A stretch of 64,000 nucleotides of DNA from an uncultured Poribacteria bacterium (lineage in GTDB: Bacteria; Poribacteria; WGA-4E; WGA-3G). The notes beneath the pieces are model-generated. The model saw nothing but the letters and a program-made list of their open reading frames with translations, had not been told where the DNA came from and ran no database searches. Shown here in pieces: positions 6,390 to 63,570 of the stretch. Position numbers and translations under genes: made by a program. Position 1 is the first letter of the stretch. Each line of letters opens with the position of its first letter. Where the stretch lies: the NCBI GenBank assembly GCA_958296135.2, contig CATQHZ020000001.1, forward strand, positions 4,416,001-4,480,000, read 5' to 3'.

Positions 6390-7298
6390 CTACCGCTTCT
6401 TGAGGTTACCCCACGTGGTAGCGAGTTTGCCCTGTGCTTCGACAGCAACAACCGCGCCACCCGCCAGGTCACGCACTTCATCTTCGCTTAAGGCACGGTC
6501 CCAGAAGTAAACCTCATCGATCATGCCATCAATCCAGATGTCGTTGCCTTCATCGCCGCCGCGGGCCCTGCCGACTCCGAGTTCAATCGGTTCGTTGGGG
6601 AACGCAAAAAGGGGCGGCGTAATTGCTCTCGGATGCTCTTGCCCACTTTCGGGGATGATAGTGTCCCCCCCGGTAGCCGAGGAAGTCACGTAGGCTTTCG
6701 CCTCGGTGCCATCGACGACATAGGCGACGTGCGCCCATTCTTCCGCCGCGTAAACCCCATCGGTGCGGAACCACCCTTCGGTGCCTTCCCAGCAGCTCCC
6801 CCAGGTTAGGTCGGTATCGCTGACGGTGCAGATGCGCACCATGAAATTCGCGCCCCATCCGACTTTTTCGCCCTTGAAAAGCACGCCGCCGTGGTCCCGG
6901 CCGCCGCCCTCGCGGATGTAAAGCCACAATGAGATGGAGAAAACCCCATCCTCTTTTTCAAGACTCGCGTCGGACGGAATTTCAACATATTGCCCGGTGT
7001 TCTCGCCAGTGGCGGGATTCTCCGGGTTTTCAAGGTTGAGTGCCATCCCGGACTGCCCAACTGCGACGCTGGCACCGTTCATTAACTCACCATCGTTACC
7101 GCCGATTGAATCGTTAGCGGTGCCGTCGTCAAAGTTCCATACAGAGACGAGGCCGTCTTCCAAAGCGGCGTAACTATTGACACTGAAAACCATGAGCGTT
7201 AAAAACGCAAACAGACATAATTGCTTCATAATAGAAAACTGTTCCCCGAAACGCTGACATTCGCAGGGAAGTGTCAGGTTTCTAAGTTCCTGCTTCAT
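6390..7298 (-). CDS. Secreted LamG-like jellyroll protein with conserved C-terminal GKLATTWG tail
   Basis: Signal peptide from Met 7229; WNFDDG, GMIDEVYFWDRALS; ends AVEAQGKLATTWGNLKKR. The GGAGG RBS precedes 7301/7298. Confidence 0.85.
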   Translation of the reverse strand: MKQELRNLTLPCECQRFGEQFSIMKQLCLFAFLTLMVFSVNSYAALEDGLVSVWNFDDGTANDSIGGNDGELMNGASVAVGQSGMALNLENPENPATGENTGQYVEIPSDASLEKEDGVFSISLWLYIREGGGRDHGGVLFKGEKVGWGANFMVRICTVSDTDLTWGSCWEGTEGWFRTDGVYAAEEWAHVAYVVDGTEAKAYVTSSATGGDTIIPESGQEHPRAITPPLFAFPNEPIELGVGRARGGDEGNDIWIDGMIDEVYFWDRALSEDEVRDLAGGAVVAVEAQGKLATTWGNLKKR

Positions 7299-7531
7299 CA
7301 CGATGTGCCTCCAAGTGAGGGCTTACCTTCGCTCCACAGGCGTTTAAGGTATTAACTCTCGGATACGAGAGGCGTGTATAACGGACGCGGAACGCTCCCG
7401 GAGGCGTGCTTTCAAAGCGCGCACCGTGTCACCAGCGCGGGTGAAAATCGCGCCTACCGTGGCTGCGTCCGTCCTATCATTTTAACGTAGCGGGTTCGTG
7501 ATGCAATTTCACAAGCCCGTGTTGAATAAAT

Positions 7532-7563: not shown

Positions 7564-8388
7564 TTAGCGGCGGTGGTAGGATTTCACCTTCCCCCATGTT
7601 GTCGCTAATTTCCCTTCGGCTTTGACGGCCAGAGCCCTGTCGGGGCGTTTGCCGTTCGCCAGGTCTTGCACCTCGTCCTCAGACAACGCCCGATCCCAGA
7701 TGATTATCTCGTCAATGAGGGCATCAAGGAAGGTATCGTTCCCAGCGTCGCCGCCAATTTGCCGGCCGGCACCGATTTCCAGGGGCCGATCCTCGAAAAG
7801 GTTGTAAGGTTCAGGAGCAACTTGCGGATTCGCTTGGCCGCTAGCGGGAATGTTGATTTTGCCGCCATCTTCCTGAACATAAGCGATAGCCTCTTCACCG
7901 TCCGCTGTCTGACAGACATGATACCACTCCTCGGCATCAATTACGCCATCAGTCCGCATCCAGTTTTCGTTACCGCCATTCGTTGTGCCGAAGGTCATGT
8001 CGGTATTATTAAGCGCGAGGAGCCGGAAGGTGAAATTCGCGCCCCATCCGACTTTTTCGCCTTTCCAAACGCCAGCGTGGTCCGCGCCGTTCCGGACGTA
8101 AAGCCAATACGATACGGTGTGCGGGCCTTCAATGGCCTTTTCAAGCCCGTTGTTGAAAGGCACCTCGGCACGCGTATCCTTACTGCCATCCACGTCTAAC
8201 GCCTTGCCAAACTTGCCTTTATCGACAATCTTCGCGGCTTTAAAGAGTTCACCGTGGGCATCCCCAACGGCATCGGTGACTTTTCCATCGTCAAAAGTCC
8301 ACGCGGCGATGACTCCATCGTTCAAGTCTGCCTGCACAGAACCGAGTGCCAGCGCAACGACGAAAAGGACTGAAATAAACAATTTCAT
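7564..8388 (-). CDS. Secreted LamG-like jellyroll protein, paralog of 6390..7298
   Basis: Signal peptide; shared KGEKVGWGANF; LIDEIIIWDRALS; AVKAEGKLATTWGKVK tail; GAGGAGG RBS. Confidence 0.9.
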   Translation of the reverse strand: MKLFISVLFVVALALGSVQADLNDGVIAAWTFDDGKVTDAVGDAHGELFKAAKIVDKGKFGKALDVDGSKDTRAEVPFNNGLEKAIEGPHTVSYWLYVRNGADHAGVWKGEKVGWGANFTFRLLALNNTDMTFGTTNGGNENWMRTDGVIDAEEWYHVCQTADGEEAIAYVQEDGGKINIPASGQANPQVAPEPYNLFEDRPLEIGAGRQIGGDAGNDTFLDALIDEIIIWDRALSEDEVQDLANGKRPDRALAVKAEGKLATTWGKVKSYHRR

Positions 8389-8403
8389 TTAAAAATTCCT
8401 CCT

Positions 8404-8748
8404 CTAGTTAAGAGAGTGGACAGAGGCACAAGCCCCGGCCCAATAATTTTTTAAGGGTGGTAGGCCCCGGACGAGACCTGGGGCAACGAAAATAGCCCGC
8501 GACGAAACACTCCGCCTGAAGCAGAGCGCGTGCGGGCACGAAGACAGACCAAGGGGGAACCCCGATGGTGCCTTGAAACGGATAGTGATTAACGAATGTG
8601 AATGATGGGGGGGGGTAATTCTGCCTAGCCGATTGTCAAAACAACCGACAGCACGTAGGCGCGCGAAGAGGCCGCGCGCAACGCCAACGCGATGCGCGTG
8701 AAAACTAATCGCTTTCTCCTCGCTGAAATTGATACGTGCGTTCTGCAT
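8404..8748 (-). CDS. Putative leader peptide (uORF) with RLRAV...RITPP motif and C9 tract
   Basis: Homologous to the uORF at 62298..62459 through synonymous codons; its stop codon abuts the RBS of the LamG gene. Start could be 8757, 8754 or 8748. Confidence 0.55.
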   Translation of the reverse strand: MQNARINFSEEKAISFHAHRVGVARGLFARLRAVGCFDNRLGRITPPHHSHSLITIRFKAPSGFPLGLSSCPHALCFRRSVSSRAIFVAPGLVRGLPPLKNYWAGACASVHSLN

Positions 8749-8884
8749 GTCCATCACCCCATAGACATTAAGGACCTAACGGACCTTTATTGGAATAGGT
8801 TCTTTCGATATGTCGATAGATTTGGGAAACTACCCAGCTCCCCCATAGATAGGAATTATCGACGTAATTCCATCCGTGACATCA

Positions 8885-8913
8885 AATATACAAAAAATTT
8901 AAATTTTTGTCAA
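8885..8913 (-). promoter_or_regulatory. sigma70-type promoter TTGACA-17-TATATT driving a ~490-nt leader
   Basis: Consensus -35, 17-bp spacer, near-consensus -10. Confidence 0.65.
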
Positions 8914-9068
8914 CGTTTTTTGCAAAAATCTGATTTTTGAACAAGAGCTGTGAACGTTTGCTTTGACATCAATTCTGCAAATCCTGATTGGATTTCACTT
9001 GCCTTATATTTGCTATAATGCTAGACTAACAGCTAATAGAATTTCAGCGAAAAAAGAAGGATTTATTC

Positions 9069-11363
9069 GTGCAGATTCCCCAACAATACGCCATCAACCT
9101 AGTCGCGCTTTTTCGGCGCGCCGTTCGCCCATCTCTCATCGCGCTCACCTTATTCCTCACGTGGGGGTGCGATTCACAGGAGAGTCGGCGGAAACAGCCG
9201 CCGGCACCGAAGTCGGAAGTTGCCGAAGTGATGAGTCCCGTCGAATTTCCAAAACCTCGCGCTGTGGACTGGCACATGTTCATGCATGATTTAGACTTCT
9301 CCGGGATAAGCGCGGATAAGACGCTCACGCCGCCGCTCCAACTACTGTGGAAATTCAAAACCGGCGGCCCACTCCACGCCTCACCGGTGGTTGCAAACGG
9401 TGTGCTATACATCGGTTCAACCGATGGCAAGTTGTATGCGCTCAATGCCAAACGGTGGGACATCAAATGGGTTTTTAACGCAGGCAGTGCCATCCGATAT
9501 TCAGCCACGGTGTTAGGAGCCCGTGTCTATTTCAGCGCGAGGAATAATAAGGTTTACGCGCTCAATGCCGACACAGGCGAACCGGTGTGGGAGTTTAAAT
9601 CCAAGAGTTGGATGGACGCGCCGCCCATCGTGGTAGATGGGAAACTCTATATCGGCGCGTTTCCCTCAAAAATCTATCAATTGAACGCGATAACTGGAAA
9701 ACTTGAGGCGACGCGCGAACGCACTGTCCGAATCCGGGGGGTTGAATATGGGTGCGCCAACGGCGAATTCCGTCCGATCGCCCCGCACTACAACGCACCA
9801 CTGTGGCGAAAACAGACTGCAGGAAGCAACAGCTACCCTATTATCGCAAACGGGTTCGTCTATATCGGCGCGCGCGATGGACACATCCACGCGTTTGACG
9901 CGGCATCAAAACGTGAAACGTGGACATATCAGACGCGCGGTTTTATTGACGCAGCACCTGCTGTCTCTGACGGTATCCTCTACGCTGCCTCCGGCGATGG
10001 CACAGTCTACGCATTTAGCAACGTCTCAACAACTCCCGCAAGCAAACTTGCCAATGGCAAGGCACCCCCTACTCCCGCAGGCGCGCGTTCCAAGCGCGCA
10101 AAAGGAACCGTCACGCACGATAACGCCCCAGTCCACGCCGCTCGGAACGGACAAACCGAGAAACCGCTCCTCCACCTCAACGATGGCGTTGTCCTGCCGA
10201 TTGTGCAAACTGCCGACAGATGGTATGAGGTAGCACTGCCGAACGGCGAACTCGGTTGGATGGATACGTTCGCCTTCGGACAGTTTGAAGAGACAGAAGG
10301 CGTGCTGTTTAATACTAACTTCTGCGGAAAACCTCGGACACTACAATTGGTTGAAGGCGCAGAATACCCACGCTGGAGCCCAGATGGGGAACTCATCGCG
10401 ATGCTGAAAAGGACAGAACTCCGCGGGCGGTATTGGCAGGCAAGTGAACTGCTAATCATGGACAAAGCGACGGAACGAGCACGCAAACTCTATGCCGGGC
10501 CGATTTACAACCCGCATGTCTCCTGGTCCCTCGATAGTCGGCTTTTGGCATGTGAGGTTGATGAAAAGGGGGAACGTTACGTTTACACGATAGATTGGAA
10601 ACTCGGCCGGGTTAAGAAGTTAATTCAGGGCGATGGCCCCACCTGGTCGCCCACTTCAAACCGGCTCGTGTTTCGGCGGCGCGATAAGGGGATGGATGTC
10701 GTCTACCGCATCAACAGCGACGGGAGTGGGACGCAGGCGATTGCGCGGGTGCCGGTTGAACGCCGCAAGCAGTCTTACACCTACCTGCCCGCGCCGTCCT
10801 GGGCACCCGATGGGACGCGCGTGGCTTTCGGTGTCCACCACCAAAAATATGTCGGCATCCGCATCCAAGGTGTGGAAGGGAAACGTTTAAAGGAGATACC
10901 GACGCAGCATCAGCACGTCGCGCACCTCCACTGGGCGGCAGACGGAACGCAGCTCGCTTACGTGTTGTCAGGCAGCAACCGTCCGGGGCAACTCATTGAT
11001 AAGCAGCTCCACCTCGCCGATGCGATTTCTACGTCAACGCAGACGCAGATTCTCAAACATACGTCGCCAGCCTGGGCACCGGCAGGGAAGCAGTTGGCAT
11101 ATTTGGAACGCGAGGATTGCGAGGGGCTCCGCTGGAAAGTCTGGATTTACGACGTTGAGAGCGGGCGCAAATGCCCGATTGCACGGACGCAGCTGAAGGT
11201 AACATCAGTCGTCTGGATGCCGGACGGGGAACATCTCTGCTTGTGGCACACGTCGGATTACCTGCGCGATAACGCCTACAAACCCGCAATAACGAAGGGG
11301 TGGATTGTGCCTGTTAATATCCCTAAGATATTAACATCCAACAAACCTAAATCTGGCTTGTAA
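9069..11363 (+). CDS. Lipoprotein with PQQ-like (BamB-type) beta-propeller repeats, SH3-like domain and TolB/PD40-like propeller
   Basis: LTWGC lipobox; repeated 'SPVV..G.LYIG..DG.LYALNA..W.F'; WYEVALPNGELGWM; repeated P.WSPDG. Confidence 0.8.
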   Translation: MQIPQQYAINLVALFRRAVRPSLIALTLFLTWGCDSQESRRKQPPAPKSEVAEVMSPVEFPKPRAVDWHMFMHDLDFSGISADKTLTPPLQLLWKFKTGGPLHASPVVANGVLYIGSTDGKLYALNAKRWDIKWVFNAGSAIRYSATVLGARVYFSARNNKVYALNADTGEPVWEFKSKSWMDAPPIVVDGKLYIGAFPSKIYQLNAITGKLEATRERTVRIRGVEYGCANGEFRPIAPHYNAPLWRKQTAGSNSYPIIANGFVYIGARDGHIHAFDAASKRETWTYQTRGFIDAAPAVSDGILYAASGDGTVYAFSNVSTTPASKLANGKAPPTPAGARSKRAKGTVTHDNAPVHAARNGQTEKPLLHLNDGVVLPIVQTADRWYEVALPNGELGWMDTFAFGQFEETEGVLFNTNFCGKPRTLQLVEGAEYPRWSPDGELIAMLKRTELRGRYWQASELLIMDKATERARKLYAGPIYNPHVSWSLDSRLLACEVDEKGERYVYTIDWKLGRVKKLIQGDGPTWSPTSNRLVFRRRDKGMDVVYRINSDGSGTQAIARVPVERRKQSYTYLPAPSWAPDGTRVAFGVHHQKYVGIRIQGVEGKRLKEIPTQHQHVAHLHWAADGTQLAYVLSGSNRPGQLIDKQLHLADAISTSTQTQILKHTSPAWAPAGKQLAYLEREDCEGLRWKVWIYDVESGRKCPIARTQLKVTSVVWMPDGEHLCLWHTSDYLRDNAYKPAITKGWIVPVNIPKILTSNKPKSGL

Positions 11364-11473
11364 CACGCCTCATAACCCGTAGGGCGAGGGCCGTTACGCC
11401 GAAAGGTTGTTATCTCTGCAGCCTCGCTGCAGAGATGGCCACTGTCCCTCGCCGTGCCAACTGAAAAATTCGG

Positions 11474-57722: not shown

Positions 57723-60700
57723 CTATTTCGCCTGCTTTTTCACAGCACCGAACGTCGTCAACTGCCGATTGGCCGCGGAGACTGGCCCCCGCAACATCCG
57801 CATCGCCAACGTCGCCGGCCGCCCATCAAACGCGACCTCCTCGATCTGATAATAGTACTCAACACCCGGCTTCGCAGACGTGTCCGTAAACGTATACGTC
57901 TGACGCTCACCTGTCGTGCCAGCACCCGCAATCAACGCAGCATTCAGCAGCGTGAAACCACTGTCGCGTTTCTCACTACGGCGCAGGTTAAAACCAGCGT
58001 TGTCGACTTCGGACTCCGTCGTCCAGGTCACGACAACCGCACCTGCCTCCGTGCGCGCCACGGTGAAACTTGACAACTCCACCGGCAACGCACCACCGCG
58101 CCGATACCCCGGCGTGCCGATGTCCTCAGCATGCCCATAGTGGAGGGCTGACACCGCGAGTCGCTTGACGTTCGACGCCAGAGCCCAACTCGCACGCTGC
58201 TTCCCTTTCAGTGCAACGCCTTTGTCGTAACGCCGAATCAGCGAACTCCGAACGCCTTCCTCAACACTCACCGGCAACGCCCACGCCGGCGCATCTTTCG
58301 TCCGACGATTCCCATCGGTATTGCCCACTTCATCTATCTTCGTCCCATTCCTATCGGTAAGTTTCAGGTAGAACCCTTCCGCGCTCAGGAACGTATCCCG
58401 CGCAGTCTTGATGCGCAGGTTCCTCTGATGCAGTGCCAACAGGTTGTAAACCCGCTCCGCAGGAAACACCGTGCTTGAAGACGCACGCGCAGGCCCCGCG
58501 ACAATCAGCAGCGTCTGATTCGGTTGAATCACCTTCTCTTGCAACGTCAACGCCACAATCGGCCGCCCTACCAAATCTTCCGAATCCACATTCTGGAACT
58601 CCAATTGCCACCGGTTCAGATTGAGTGCCTCGGTCTTGGATTTATTATACAGCTCTATCCACTGTGGCAGTGTGCCACCACCCGAATCAAACATCACTTC
58701 GCTGATAGTGATACTGCCTTTCGGCGTGGCAGCACCCGTTTTCACGGCACCATTCGGATACCCCGGTGTGCCTGCGGTGGCAGCAGACTTCGAGACAGTC
58801 CTGTCATAGCCGATACCGGTGAACGCCGCCTCTGCCCAGGCATCTTTATGGTAACCCACAATATCTGCCTTGGCGCGCTGCCACACCTTACCAGAGCCGA
58901 GGGCCCCTTCGGTATCACCACCCGGTGCCTCACGCACTTGCAACGGCCACACGTAGGTATCATAGTCCCCTGTCTGCTCGCGAACGAACGCATCCGTGTC
59001 ACTGCCACCGCCACCGGCGACATCGACAAATGCCTCGTTCATACCGAGTTTCTCCTTGGCGTTCCGCAGAATCAATAGGAACTTCCCATCATCTGGCAAG
59101 GATAGCCCCGCATCCACCAAAAACGCATGCGACAACCCTCTCTGCTCACCACCTGCCAGCGGCGTTTTATCCGGCGCACTGTTCGTGATGAGTAAGAGCC
59201 CATTGGCCGGCACACTCACATCCGCGAAAACGACAAGCGATGTATCTTCCTTTTGCCCATCGGCCACAACCGAAAGCTCATAGTCTTTCAGGGATACCGC
59301 CGAACCCGTGACATTCCGCAATTCCAGCCAATCATTTGCAGCACCGCTGCCATTGCCGAACTCGTTAAAAACAATCGGACTGCGAGGCACAGCAGACGCA
59401 GCAGCCTTCGGCGATGTCTCCTCGGGGAAAAACGGCACAAACGGCACAACCGGTGTCTCCTGGACGACAGGCGAACCCCCCGGGGCCGCCGCCGGCACCG
59501 AGGCCGGCGCAGCACCAGAACCCATCGCAGGCGCTGCTGTCCCAGACTGCCGCTGTTGCTCAGACAGCAACGTCGTCCCTTCCGGCACCTGTATCTCGAC
59601 AGAGGGAGCACGCACTGTCTCTGCCACCGTGTCCGTGGCTGCCACCGTATACGCGAATGTCACCCGGGTCGAATTCGTGTCTTCCGCCGCTGTCCAAACA
59701 GCATGCCGCGCATTCGCTAACACCTGTTCACCCAGATACACCACCAGATACGGCAGGTTGGCCCCTTCATACCGCAGATTCTCCTGGGCATACGTCACCG
59801 ACACTTCAATCTTATCTCCGGCGGTATAGACACCCGCGGGGGGCGCAACAATCTCCGGCGTACCCACCACGCTGTCCACCGGCACTGTTAACGTATTCGA
59901 TACCAGATTCCCGTTGCCCGCAATGTCCATCGTGGCACCCGCGGGCACCTGAATCGTCACATCGCCCCTAAAACCAGCGGCGGGCGTAATCCGCGCTTTG
60001 TAAACCAAGAACGATGCCGAATTCTTCGCATCACCGGGACTGTGCCCAGCGTCTCCGGAGTAATTCTGTAATGCACGATGGTCGAGCCCAATGTAAACCG
60101 GGGCATCAACCGTCCAATCCAGCGAATTCCCATCGGCATCGCTGAAGACAATGTCCTCCGCGCCAAACGTCTCACCGATTTCCTCGGCGATGGCACCCGT
60201 CTCAGAGTGATGGTTCGTAAAGCGGAATTCAACGTCAAACGCGCCGTCCTGCGACACCGATTCCGTAGTCCCTGCCGCAAAATCTGTCACAGCGTGCCCA
60301 GATGCACTGGGATCCAGGTTGACTATCGCGTTGAGTCGATCCTCGGTGTGCGTCTCCCCATTCTTTATCAAGCCGGGAATCCACACCGTCGGCGGAAGGG
60401 TATCCACAAGGTGCCTGACGACTGCCTGGGCGTAGGCAGCGGCCTTCGCACCGGCAAGAGGGAGGGGCCGCTCCCAACTTCGATAACTCGTAATCGTTCT
60501 CCAATTGTTGGGGCCTTGCCACGTGTTGTCAATTGAATCATCCTGAATCAGAAACCTCCGAAACTCCAATTCAATATCGTGCTGAAACCACGTACCATAA
60601 TCAAAAGTGTAGCCAGCCGCGTTTTTTATGTGCTGCTGCTGCGCTGCGGGAAGCCACTGACCCTGACCATTTACCTCCCACTTACCGGAACGGGCATTAT

Positions 60701-61864
60701 GCCACATACTGTCGTCAAGAGTGATGCCATCGAACACCCGATCTCCCACTTGCACGGTGTATTGGAAGGTGAGCATTGCATCTCCAGTCAGATCCGCATT
60801 GGTGAGTGTAAACAGCGTTTCCGGTCCGCTTCCGGTTCCGGTTTTGAACGACTGGTGCGTCTTCAGCGTCACACCTGCGTCGGCAATGACGTTTTCATCA
60901 AACGTCATCCGAATTTGCATGACATCGCCTGCCCTGTAATAGCCGACGGTCGGACTATTCGCCAAAGTCACAGGGTTAGCCCCGGTAGGAAGGGCCCAGC
61001 CATCAGTTCCCACCAAATCGCAGTATCCCGTGTACTCGGCACCGTAGTGATTGTGATAGCGGAGACAATCTTGGCGCACCTTGTGATAGCGGGACTTGCC
61101 GGTCTGGGGCGCGGTACCAGGAACAAACTGCACCGCGTAAGTGCTTGTCGATGCATCTGTTGTTATCAGTGCCGGGCGCTTCCCGTACACTACGGGATAA
61201 TTGACACCTGTAGTGTCAAACGCGATCGTCCCTTGATTCTGCACTGGCCATCGGTTATTAGAAAAAGGGGTAGCCGTTGTTGAAGACTCAAGCCACCCAC
61301 CGTCGGTATCAATGTCGCCATTCTTCACCTCATAGACGTAGACAGCGGTAGCATTTGCAAGTACTGGACTGAGCCAACTATGTGAGCTGCCTTCCAAGTA
61401 GACGTTAGGAGTCGGTGACTGTTTAATCCCGCCTGGGTTATTTGTCAGATCCGTTGGTACTGCCAACCCGGCCGCATCAAAACCAGGGAAGTTTAACGTT
61501 GCGAACCAGATCCTTACATTCTGTAGATGAAGCGCAATCGCGATGATATCCCCCGCACGCGCCGTGACTGGGGTTGCGCTATCGTGGTCGTTGGAGTCAG
61601 TAATCTCGGTACCGCCGCTCAGCGTGCCGTGGCTCGTACCGAGTTTCGCGTACGGCCCCCCCCCACGGTACCCCGTATCGGCGTATGCGACGACACCTCG
61701 GTTGGATAGTTAGCATCGGCGATGCTGGTTACCATATCTGGGTTCACGTAGATTTTAATGCCAGCTACTGATTCTACGGCTTGTGCGTCTATCGGTATGC
61801 CGAGCATCGAAACTATCCCGACGACGAGCAGCAAACATAAGAAAAAAATGGAATGCCTTTTCAT
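57723..61864 (-). CDS. Large secreted protein (Ig-like repeats, two lamin-tail-like domains, LPVELSSF C-terminal domain), interrupted by a frameshift around G9 at 61656-61664
   Basis: GAGGAG RBS and signal peptide at 61864; that frame stops at 61619 while another frame is open from ~61710 to 57723. IVFNEF..NDWLELRN and ITISEVMF..QWIELYN domains; degenerate tail NRQLTTFGAVKK. Confidence 0.8.
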
Positions 61865-62297
61865 AGGAAAATTCTCCTCTTGGAAAAATGAAATAAAATG
61901 AATAGGGGGTTTCCGCCGCACCGATTGCGGCGGAAACATGAAGAGTAGGAGGGACATCGGGTCCCGATAATACCGTCTCCGCCCCACCGATTGCAGTGGA
62001 GCGCAGCAGGTGTCGCAGTCTCGGAGAAAACAGGGTAACCGTGGGCGAATGCCCACGGCTATCCTGCCCCTTTATATCCCTAGTGGGGACAGAAATTTCC
62101 CCGGAACAACGCTGGTGGCCCTCGACGTTGCAGCCATCGGTGCAACGCGAAAAGCCCCGTGGCAGCCGCGTCCACGCGAACGTGAGCGGCTGCCACGGAG
62201 CAATGTGAGTCGCGCGCATGCAACGCGCGGTTTTTTATGTTGGAATTGCGAGCAAGGATATCCCCCCGGAGCCCCTTCCTGCCGAGTTTATCAAGGG

Positions 62298-62459
62298 TTA
62301 ACTGGCGTAAAGTGAGGGGGGGGTGATCCGGTCTAGGGCATCATCAACGGGAGGCGCAAACGCAAACGGGGATACGGCGCGCAGCCGCGGTGGCTTCAGC
62401 GTCGCTTTCCCAGATATCTGCAGGCGAATCGGGTGATCCGCGCGGAATAGAGTGTTCAC
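62298..62459 (-). CDS. Putative 53-aa leader peptide MNTLFRADHPIRLQISGKATLKPPRLRAVSPFAFAPPVDDALDRITPPSLYAS
   Basis: AAAGGAG RBS 7 nt before GTG; homologous to the uORF at 8404..8748; C8 tract. Not in the ORF track; translated by hand. Confidence 0.65.
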   Translation of the reverse strand: MNTLFRADHPIRLQISGKATLKPPRLRAVSPFAFAPPVDDALDRITPPSLYAS

Positions 62460-62516: not shown

Positions 62517-62545
62517 ATTATACCACATTTTTTTGCGATTGTCAA
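62517..62545 (-). promoter_or_regulatory. Consensus sigma70 promoter TTGACA-17-TATAAT driving a ~650-nt leader
   Basis: Perfect hexamers and spacing. Confidence 0.8.
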
Positions 62546-62624: not shown

Positions 62625-63570
62625 CGGCCCTTTTCACCGTAGCGCGAGGGAAAACCCGGCGATCGCGAATCGCCGAGGGGTCCCCTCGCGAAGCTCTTAT
62701 TAACCGTAGGGCGAGGGCCGTTACGCCGAAACTTTGTCATCTCTGCAGCCTCGCTGCAGAGATGTCCACTGTCCCTCGCGATCGCTCGACCTAAATCAAA
62801 ACCGCCGAAACCCCGTACACCGCTATCTCCTCTTCAGACCGCTGCATGGCGCGGCACAGGACCGCGCCCTACGGACTAAGGGGCTTTTCACCGCGGCATG
62901 GCGCGGCACAGGACCGCGCCCTACGGACTAAGGGGCTTTTCACCGCGGCCTGGCGCGGCACAGGACCGCGCCCTACGGACTAAGGGGCATTTGCACCGCA
63001 GCGCGGGGGAAACCTGTCCCTCGCCAAACGGCCCCTTTTCACCGTCGCGCGAGGGCCCGGCGATCACTAATCGCCGAGGGTTCCCCTCGCTATCTACCGA
63101 CAGACACAAAAAACAACCGAAACCCCGTGCTGCGGCCATCTCCTTTTCAGACCGCAGCACGGCGCAGCACAGGACCGCGCCCTACGGACTAAGGCACCTC
63201 TTCACCGTAGCGCGAGGGCCTGTTCGCCGCGAAACGGCCCCTTTCACCGTAGCGCGAGGGCCCGGCGATCGCGAATCGCCGAGGGTTCCCCTCGCGATCG
63301 TCCGAACCACACGAACCCCCCCTTTCACCGTCGCGCGGCGGCCTGTCCCTCGCGATCCTCCTTGATAGACCGATGCATGGCGCGGCACAGGACCGCGCCC
63401 TACGGACTAAGAAGCATTTTTACCCGCGCGAAAGAGGCCCCTTTCACCGCAGCATGGCGCGGCACAAGACCGCGCCCTACGGACTAAGGGCCTTTTTCAC
63501 CGACGCATGGCGCGGCACAGGACCGCGCCCTACGGACTAAGGGCCTTTTCACCGACGGCCCCTTTTTACC
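62625..63570. repeat. Mosaic REP/REPIN-like array (right), same orientation as the left array
   Basis: Seven copies of the 33-bp core; 63232-63410 closely matches 57391-57573. Confidence 0.9.

Follow-up and report, generated by a model that had tools for sequence, protein, structure and literature searches.

We analysed a 64,000-nucleotide (nt) stretch of DNA (the window), positions 4,416,001 to 4,480,000 of contig CATQHZ020000001.1 in the assembly GCA_958296135.2 of an uncultured Poribacteria bacterium. Two genes on its minus strand, encoding a secreted LamG protein and a Lamin-tail-domain (LTD) surface protein, are each preceded by a long leader in which an upstream open reading frame (uORF) runs into an unbroken cytosine tract read as consecutive prolines. 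An earlier note, made from the letters of the window, had described these leaders (here copies 1 and 2) as poly-C 'RITPP' leader peptides and had cautioned that only two copies were visible. That caveat is superseded: this Candidatus Poribacteria genome has about 26 leader cassettes of this kind, copies 1 and 2 included. The copy-1 locus has the following features, from promoter to gene:

8885-8913 (-), sigma-70-type promoter, TTGACA (8913-8908), 17-nt spacer, TATATT (8890-8885), 11 of 12 matches
8754-8805 (-), repeated element of ~50 nt between the promoter and the uORF start, in the copy-1 leader only (similarity search)
8404-8757 (-), uORF in the C9 state as assembled, from GTG 8757, ATG 8754 or ATG 8748 to TAG 8406-8404
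8607-8615 (-), C9 tract, in the frame (A)CC CCC CCC C for Thr-Pro-Pro (sequence, and contigs of four of four runs from one sample)
8589-8593 (-), GTTAA, 13 nt past the C9 tract, its TAA at 8591-8589
8541-8574 (-), hairpin Pa (fold prediction)
8482-8536 (-), terminator-like module, hairpin Pb (8496-8536, CCCGCACGC...GUCGCGGG) with tail CUAUUUUCGUUGCC (consensus fold and profile)
8397-8410 (-), stops in two frames (TAA 8410-8408, TAG 8406-8404) adjoining the LamG Shine-Dalgarno sequence (SD) GAGGAGGA
7564-8388 (-), LamG gene, secreted Laminin_G_3 protein (PF13385, E 7e-15) with signal peptide MKLFISVLFVVALALGSVQA

The uORF of copy 1, whose translation contains ARLRAVGCFDNRLGRITPPHHSHS, reads ...RLRAVGCFDNRLGRITPP (also given as ARLRAVGCFDNRLGRITPPHH, through C9) and then runs on through the whole leader to a TAG located 15 nt 5′ of the LamG ATG at 8388. 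The earlier note was accurate in placing the promoter and in reading the C9 frame through to a TAG adjoining the LamG ribosome binding site (RBS). It was also right that with C8 the frame would end at the TAA of GTTAA, 15 nt past the run, just as far as in copy 2. Of the three frames in copy 1 and its orthologs, one has an early stop and two are open up to the TAA or TAG adjoining the SD. The orthologs of this uORF in two other genomes (G001 and G002) are likewise read-through. Promoters homologous to that of copy 1 sit upstream of the other leaders. The tract is present as C9 without a gap in contigs bridging 8032-11406 from four runs of one sample, possibly the source sample, and an assembly slip is therefore not indicated, with the proviso that contigs hide minor variants. 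These contigs have 0 gaps in runs X1 and X2, and those of X3 and X4 depart from the window only at A/T runs. The ~50-nt repeat (query positions 196-247) matches several other loci of the genome at 83-88% identity and has many copies also in G001 and G002. The note had it overlapping the codons for RLRAV; it lies at ~8754-8805, upstream of the uORF instead.

Copy 2 has the same plan as the other leaders, with a diverged hairpin:

62517-62545 (-), promoter, TTGACA (62545-62540), 17 nt, TATAAT (62522-62517) (from the sequence)
62298-62459 (-), uORF of 53 codons plus TAA, with SD AAGGAG upstream, C8 at 62316-62323 and GTTAA at 62302-62298
62141-62196 (-), terminator-like module, hairpin GUGGCAGCCGC...GCGGCUGCCAC followed by GGGGCUUUUCGCGUUGCA (sequence and fold)
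57723-61863 (-), LTD surface-protein gene, -1 frameshifted relative to its paralog at an internal G9 (61656-61664)

The copy-2 uORF encodes VNTLFRADHPIRLQISGKATLKPPRLRAVSPFAFAPPVDDALDRITPPSLYAS followed by the stop, and nine close paralogs occur elsewhere in the genome at 80-98% DNA identity. Comparison of the two copies gives the codons that had been reported for them: RLRAV is CGC CTA CGT GCT GTC in copy 1 and CGG CTG CGC GCC GTA in copy 2, the Arg is AGA vs CGG and the Ile ATT vs ATC, and TPP is ACC CCC CCC in both. In the intact paralog of the LTD gene, the position of G9 reads GTG TGG GGG GGG CCG. The frameshift may mean that the gene is a pseudogene or that G9 is a second phase-variable tract, within the gene. 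A REP-like (repetitive extragenic palindrome) element of ~65 nt lies upstream of the copy-2 promoter, at about 62625-62691 of the window. It has several hundred copies in the genome at 80-98% identity, often in tandem arrays located in the long intergenic regions before the LTD genes.

The count of about 26 pools VNQR-type, copy-1-type, copy-2-type and other leaders. The genome-wide search proposed in the earlier note, for uORFs ending in (I/V)TPP on C-runs, recovered 12 (I)TPP loci, namely ten copy-2-type leaders (copy 2 among them), copy 1 and a locus at 2331385. A paralog of copy 1 is located at 3766617 of contig C1, and the VNQR-type leaders form a further subfamily. Searching 176 Poribacteria genomes for the motif TTA-C8+-N10-16-GTTAA, we found it in 33, with 32 of 111 other genomes of the family to which the window belongs and none of the 64 from other families having it; the reversed pattern gave 0 matches in the 176 genomes. 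The cassette is kept across at least four genera. A profile built from 16 uORF peptides matched three small predicted proteins from this genome and 47 from metagenomes assembled independently, and none of these 50 has a recorded Pfam domain. Rfam gave 0 matches at gathering scores in the 64-kb window, and the sole match for four leaders at E<=1 was an unrelated, sub-threshold one to RAGATH-18; the note's proposed Rfam scan thus yielded no family for the leader. At LamG loci related to that of copy 1, the leader occurs in 2 of 35 from other genomes (both in the window's genus) plus the window's own locus, and the remaining 33 have a plain promoter in its place. Because the leader precedes LamG only in this genus, we conclude that the cassette was gained as a unit. 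Two decayed leaders (L079, 4116742-4117040 of contig C1, and locus L072 of genome G004) keep the uORF and Pb, with the tract interrupted (ACCTC.., CCCCCACCC) and the GTTAA stop out of frame, so the tract can be lost.

We aligned 22 leaders from five genomes over the SD, start codon, tract, GTTAA and Pb. From 5′ to 3′, a cassette consists of a promoter (TTGACA-17-TATAAT), a 5′ part of 60-100 nt, an SD (GAGGA) with GTG or ATG, a uORF of 40-60 codons, (T)TTA, C8-10, 13-14 nt with a loose CACTTCACAT core, GTTAA(G), hairpin Pa, hairpin Pb (CCCGCACGC..GCGUGGCGGG), CUAUUUCUGUUGCA, a third hairpin, a second SD and the gene; the leader is 350-500 nt long. GTTAA is almost invariant across the alignment, and its TAA is the usual stop of the uORF. 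The Pa stems vary in sequence and keep their architecture. The stem of Pb is GC-rich and is followed by a U-rich tail; it covaries, with compensatory changes in five of its 10 consensus pairs (RNAalifold). Both hairpins were predicted in all 19 leaders folded (three of the 22 were skipped), with a median z of -3.3. Ten of the 11 Pb modules located with an nhmmer profile sit 40-101 nt 3′ of a C8-C10 run and the eleventh belongs to a decayed copy; this profile recovered its own training members only, and an earlier regex count had been too crude. We rejected two other roles for the tract: pairing with a G-rich partner, as a G6 3′ of the tract is confined to the copy-2 type and the leaders share no such partner, and service as the spacer of a sigma-70 or extracytoplasmic function (ECF) promoter, for which inspection by eye in both orientations gave no spacing consistent across subfamilies. 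A TATAAT follows GTTAAG in some genera only.

Long C tracts are over-represented in this genome. It comprises 5.19 Mb in four contigs and has 86 C/G runs of at least 8 nt. On contig C1 the counts for runs of 6, 7, 8, 9 and 10 are 558, 58, 28, 43 and 10, respectively. GTTAA lies within 25 nt of 35 of the 81 C8-C10 runs on this contig vs 6 of the 616 C6-C7 runs (1.8% of random 30-nt windows contain it), and none of its motif-bearing runs is shorter than 8 nt. In long ORFs just 110 of 3500 Pro-Pro pairs (3.1%) are CCC-CCC, yet essentially all leaders use this pair, and we therefore conclude that the tract is selected as nucleotides. Two long C-rich stretches, a C17 plus C88 run at 7759-7864 of contig C4 and a low-complexity stretch at 3588040-3588121 of contig C1, are probably assembly or low-complexity artefacts outside the motif family.

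The length of the tract differs among close relatives, which together with the over-representation of G/C tracts of at least 8 nt is what is found at contingency loci. Among the ten copy-2-type paralogs, C8 and C9 occur four times each and C10 twice; across all 12 (I)TPP loci, including copy 1 (C9) and 2331385 (C8), the numbers are five, five and two. Near-identical pairs differ by one C, and runs in other genera reach C13. The tract is C9 in copy 1, C9 in its G001 ortholog and C8 in that of G002, and the spacings differ among them. A 106-residue protein from an independent assembly matches the G001 ortholog at 103 of 106 residues if the tract is read as C8 and at 53 with the assembled C9, although an assembly error in one of the records could also produce such a one-C difference between near-identical strains. 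Past the tract, the uORF products of these strains are wholly different.

In the alignment the SD (GAGGA) and the GTG or ATG start occupy one fixed position, and in the 15 aligned VNQR-type uORFs all internal gap blocks are 3 or 15 nt. LRAV differs at third codon positions only, in three subfamilies; the Arg ahead of (I/F)TPP is encoded by AGA, CGA or CGG, and one leader copy with CCC changed to CCT still encodes TPPDTHRR and a stop. From these signals we infer that the uORF is translated; its frame is maintained in the sequences compared, and its amino-acid sequence appears barely constrained. TTTA-Cn-N13-GTTAA is read in three frames depending on the subfamily, as (F/I)-T-P-P, L-P-P-P or Y-P-P, and therefore 'RITPP' is not the conserved unit. 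The tract is always read as two or three prolines in CCC codons, and the residues ahead of Pro-Pro vary (RIT, RFT, GFT, GST, LKT, SYY, GL(P) and others). No hydrophobic segment or export signal was found in the uORF peptides. Most often the uORF ends 4-6 codons past the tract at the TAA of GTTAA(G), whose 'GT' is kept whichever residue comes last (R, S or C). All five VNQR-type uORFs of G002 end at this TAA. Of the 47 metagenome peptides, counted by hand, about 32 end 4-5 residues past the prolines, five are in the +1 frame and end ...TFTGVK or TLTGVK, and the remaining ten vary in form, three being long read-throughs and four lacking the full run. In leaders other than copy 1 and its orthologs, the read-through stop overlaps the start codon of the gene or lies 3-18 nt from it.

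The genes behind the leaders encode Laminin_G_3 proteins, giant cadherin/fn3 proteins, a cohesin/dockerin protein and a WD40 protein (both with type IX secretion system (T9SS) sorting tails), an ABC-2 permease, a patatin and LTD proteins of 1200-1450 residues with at least ten paralogs. None is a component of Sec or YidC. Behind copy 1, a second secreted Laminin_G_3 gene follows the first at 6390-7301 (-), and the two may form an operon served by the leader. At window position 7315, in the spacer that separates them, all four runs contain a G>A variant contig with about one third of the depth. The RAGATH-18 match lies at 7287-7340 (-), with E 0.15 and 26.9 bits vs a gathering score of 44.9.

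Tracts of the same kind occur in the first codons of methylase genes, in the G orientation and flanked by TAAA and TTAAC. The tract-bearing methylase genes comprise an N6_N4_Mtase+Mrr_cat gene in six copies (four of the six in frame from a TTG start), mod-like genes split at the tract and an Eco57I-type gene. Tracts in restriction-modification and methylase genes are G9-G10 or C9 and are located in the first codons or between the N-terminal and catalytic parts; several of these genes are out of frame as assembled. The loci are:

contig C1, 195560, 601424, 670252, 1453394, 2953835 and 4145689, tract-bearing methylase or restriction-modification genes
contig C1, 171076, 1877380, 3449419, 4722621, 2642102 and 2770835, further genes of these kinds

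We regard these methylases as candidate phase-variable methyltransferases (phasevarions). The combination of surface-protein and restriction-modification genes with G/C tracts is the classical contingency-locus signature. A TatA-like gene (MLGLGPWELLIVLAIVLLIFGGK...) at 393265 of contig C1 has a G9 run 4 nt before its ATG, in the Shine-Dalgarno position.

Starting from the observed anatomy, conservation, frame maintenance, tract lability and gene classes, we propose that the length of the tract, or slippage on CCC-CCC-C, sets where the ribosome stops on the uORF and hence whether the downstream hairpins block expression. We give this a probability of roughly 0.4. A strong promoter would produce a 350-500-nt leader, on which ribosomes would translate the 40-60-codon uORF into the C8-C10 tract, and what becomes of the transcript would depend on where they stop. 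If they stop early, at GTTAA, Pa and Pb could fold behind the ribosome, and the leader would be terminated or the RBS poorly used. In another frame the ribosome would cross Pa and Pb to stops just 5′ of the SD, so that termination is prevented and translation coupled. Slipped-strand changes of tract length (phase variation) would set the frame in a heritable way, and +1 slippage or pausing on CCC-CCC-C might also set it for a short time. Among Pro codons CCC is the slowest, and +1 frameshifting is promoted by CCC/U-C (PMC8129111). Copy 1 (C9) would represent the read-through state and copy 2 (C8) the early-stop state. We infer termination by Pb, as well as which of the two states is ON, from the sequence.

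Several results weigh against this proposal. Some of the length differences reflect not slippage but T to C substitutions at the edge of the tract, with the total spacing unchanged. C9 is the sole length in the contigs of the four runs (which hide minor variants), and the early stop is used in 0 of 4 sequences of the copy-1 lineage; therefore a reversible switch is not demonstrated in that lineage. A simple terminator scan made no call at Pb of copy 1, and no conserved antiterminator or alternative pairing was found in the folded leaders. Long open read-through frames are not significantly more frequent than in dinucleotide shuffles (11 leaders, Fisher p 0.10), and for the orthologs of copy 1 p is 0.03-0.07, the orthologs not being independent; we dropped such frames as evidence. 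We likewise rejected purifying selection on the amino acids, which the earlier note had suggested checking by dN/dS. Pairwise estimates by the Nei-Gojobori method (NG86) are 0.3-1.7, and in a three-frame control the ratio of nonsynonymous to synonymous differences (pN/pS) is 0.76 in the uORF frame and 1.08 and 0.80 in the shifted frames, with no frame-specific signal. In addition, TTTA and GTTAA flank the methylase tracts on either strand, which a pure uORF model fails to explain. A broader version of the proposal would take in the methylases and seems possible though doubtful. In this version TTTA-C(8-13)-N13-GTTAA(G) would be a portable phase-variation module used in two ways in one Poribacteria family. 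Where it ends a leader uORF, slippage by one base would shift the stop and flip the attenuator and the coupling of surface-protein genes; in the first codons of methylases, in either orientation, the module would act as a classical frame switch.

The same observations can be read without DNA switching. Pausing or frameshifting of ribosomes on CCC-CCC-C could sense elongation factor P (EF-P), charging or modification of tRNA-Pro(GGG), or proline supply, and could alter the formation of Pa and Pb (attenuation) as in Salmonella mgtCBR/mgtA, with the tract-length differences as evolutionary noise. The genome does encode Rho, EF-P and tRNA-Pro(GGG), there is the precedent of mgtP (PMC3641672), and the invariant Pro-Pro is written in the slowest Pro codons, which are shift-prone (PMC8129111). 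The prevalence of the early stop (5/5 in G002, ~32/47 metagenome peptides) is what is expected if one frame is functional. But a sensor of two or three prolines has no need of an unbroken C8-C13, the pausing context of T-P-P(-P) is weak in E. coli (PMC8129111), the downstream genes are unrelated to proline or translation, and the tract in methylase coding regions points to DNA-level frame switching. We consider such a sensor unlikely. If instead the peptide were irrelevant, TTTA-Cn-N13-GTTAAG could be a nucleic-acid motif bound by a factor, with Rho loading on C-rich RNA that the uORF ribosome would mask (as in tnaC, speFL or cruR), or with a DNA-binding or repair protein recognizing either strand. 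This would account for identical nucleotides despite three reading frames, for the occurrence of both orientations relative to genes, for pN/pS values without peptide constraint and for the 'GT' kept before TAA; Rho is encoded, and uORF-masked Rho utilization (rut) sites are known (PMC12360218). A rut site is far longer than a 9-nt C run, though, the tract lacks a conserved G-rich pairing partner, no candidate binding protein was identified, and the conserved SD and start, with indels only in multiples of three, suggest that translation matters. We judge a bound motif to be quite improbable.

The cassette might have no regulatory role at all, as a mobile or duplicated promoter-leader segment with a fortuitous ORF, whose tract differences are homopolymer assembly errors. 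In favour of this are the many REP-like repeats in the genome, the frequency of open frames in DNA so rich in GC, the 80-98% DNA identity of the copy-2 paralogs and the restriction of the leader before LamG to one genus (2/35 other loci and the window's), which implies cassette-like gain. Against these points stand the presence of the cassette in at least four genera with covarying hairpins and indels of 3n nt, the reproduction of the tract in four contig sets, the 0 matches to the reversed pattern in 176 genomes and the strong association with secreted-protein genes, which make this explanation very improbable. The uORF might also encode a functional small protein of 53-117 residues, and gene callers predict it in many assemblies. 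However, pN/pS values give no amino-acid-level constraint, none of the 50 profile matches has a recorded Pfam domain, the post-tract part is wholly different between near-identical strains, and dozens of divergent copies per genome are always in the leader position; we find a functional protein scarcely credible.

In Salmonella, the progress of ribosomes over Pro codons in mgtP (mgtCBR) and mgtL (mgtA) is thought to select between alternative stem-loops (PMC3641672). The Poribacteria leaders resemble these in having a short ORF, here with translation inferred, in a long leader with consecutive Pro codons near its end. In contrast, the prolines here are encoded by a C8-C13 homopolymer without interruptions, which differs in length from copy to copy; the uORF has 40-60 codons, the cassette is multi-copy and precedes surface-protein genes, and alternative pairings were not found. 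Labile G/C tracts of at least 8 nt in surface-protein and restriction-modification genes characterize contingency loci (PMC8355987, PMC1891110, PMC2831843), and the tracts described here share these features with those of Neisseria, Campylobacter, Bordetella and other bacteria. They differ in that the tract ends a separate upstream ORF, and a frame change would act via uORF termination, attenuation or coupling. To our knowledge, the phase-variable tracts described so far are located inside the ORF that they regulate or within promoter spacers, and we know of no counterpart to the conserved TTTA and N13-GTTAA flanks in known contingency loci. In tnaC, speFL and cruR, a ribosome at or near the end of the uORF masks adjacent RNA and decides transcription read-through (PMC12360218). 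The Poribacteria leaders, unlike these, have no evident ligand-sensing peptide, and the downstream element resembles an intrinsic terminator instead of a long rut region.

The earlier note had drawn an analogy to arrest peptides with RAGP/RAPP ends. SecM, ApdA and ApdP are encoded by upstream ORFs with Pro-Pro close to the stop, before secretion-linked genes, and carry the motif R-A-(P/G)-P. The uORFs described here similarly end in Pro-Pro near the stop and precede genes for secreted proteins. They have no conserved R-A-P-P; the residues before the prolines vary, the frame differs among subfamilies, and the peptides lack an export signal. The downstream genes are cargo and not Sec/YidC machinery, whereas the known arrest peptides precede SecA, SecDF and YidC. 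Given the varied residues, the three frames, the absence of pN/pS constraint and of a hydrophobic segment, and the lack of Sec/YidC genes, the analogy is not supported. Of the rest of the note's suggestion, an undescribed family with a uORF and a slippery tract before secreted-protein genes is supported, Rfam and the literature searches being negative, and its cis-regulatory role would be a proposal. In the pyrBI leader, pausing of RNA polymerase in a homopolymer-rich leader is coupled to translation of the leader peptide. Here, too, an ORF can extend across a putative attenuator hairpin and the leader contains a nucleotide run, but there is no link to pyrimidine genes, and the run, of C instead of U, forms Pro codons within the ORF.

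The cassette thus appears to combine two known kinds of regulation, leader-ORF attenuation and homopolymer phase variation. We found no earlier report of homopolymer phase variation in Poribacteria, and our literature search returned nothing relevant on phase variation via a leader peptide, an upstream open reading frame or translational coupling. With its conserved SD, start, tract, GTTAA and two hairpins, and with measured covariation in Pb, the leader family is a candidate new cis-regulatory RNA or leader family. Poribacteria are abundant, uncultivated sponge symbionts, and their eukaryote-like surface proteins are exposed to the host and to phages. If the proposed mechanism is correct, this phylum would have contingency loci, with a hypermutable-tract leader before at least 20 surface-protein genes per genome, beside tract-bearing methylases. 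A tract within an upstream ORF would be a new way to couple slippage, whether of DNA, RNA polymerase or the ribosome, to attenuation. Should the tract and its flanks also act as a portable module, the shift of a uORF stop by slippage would add an undescribed mode to phase variation, and together with the methylase switches it would provide a sponge symbiont with a large, stochastic set of surface and epigenetic states.

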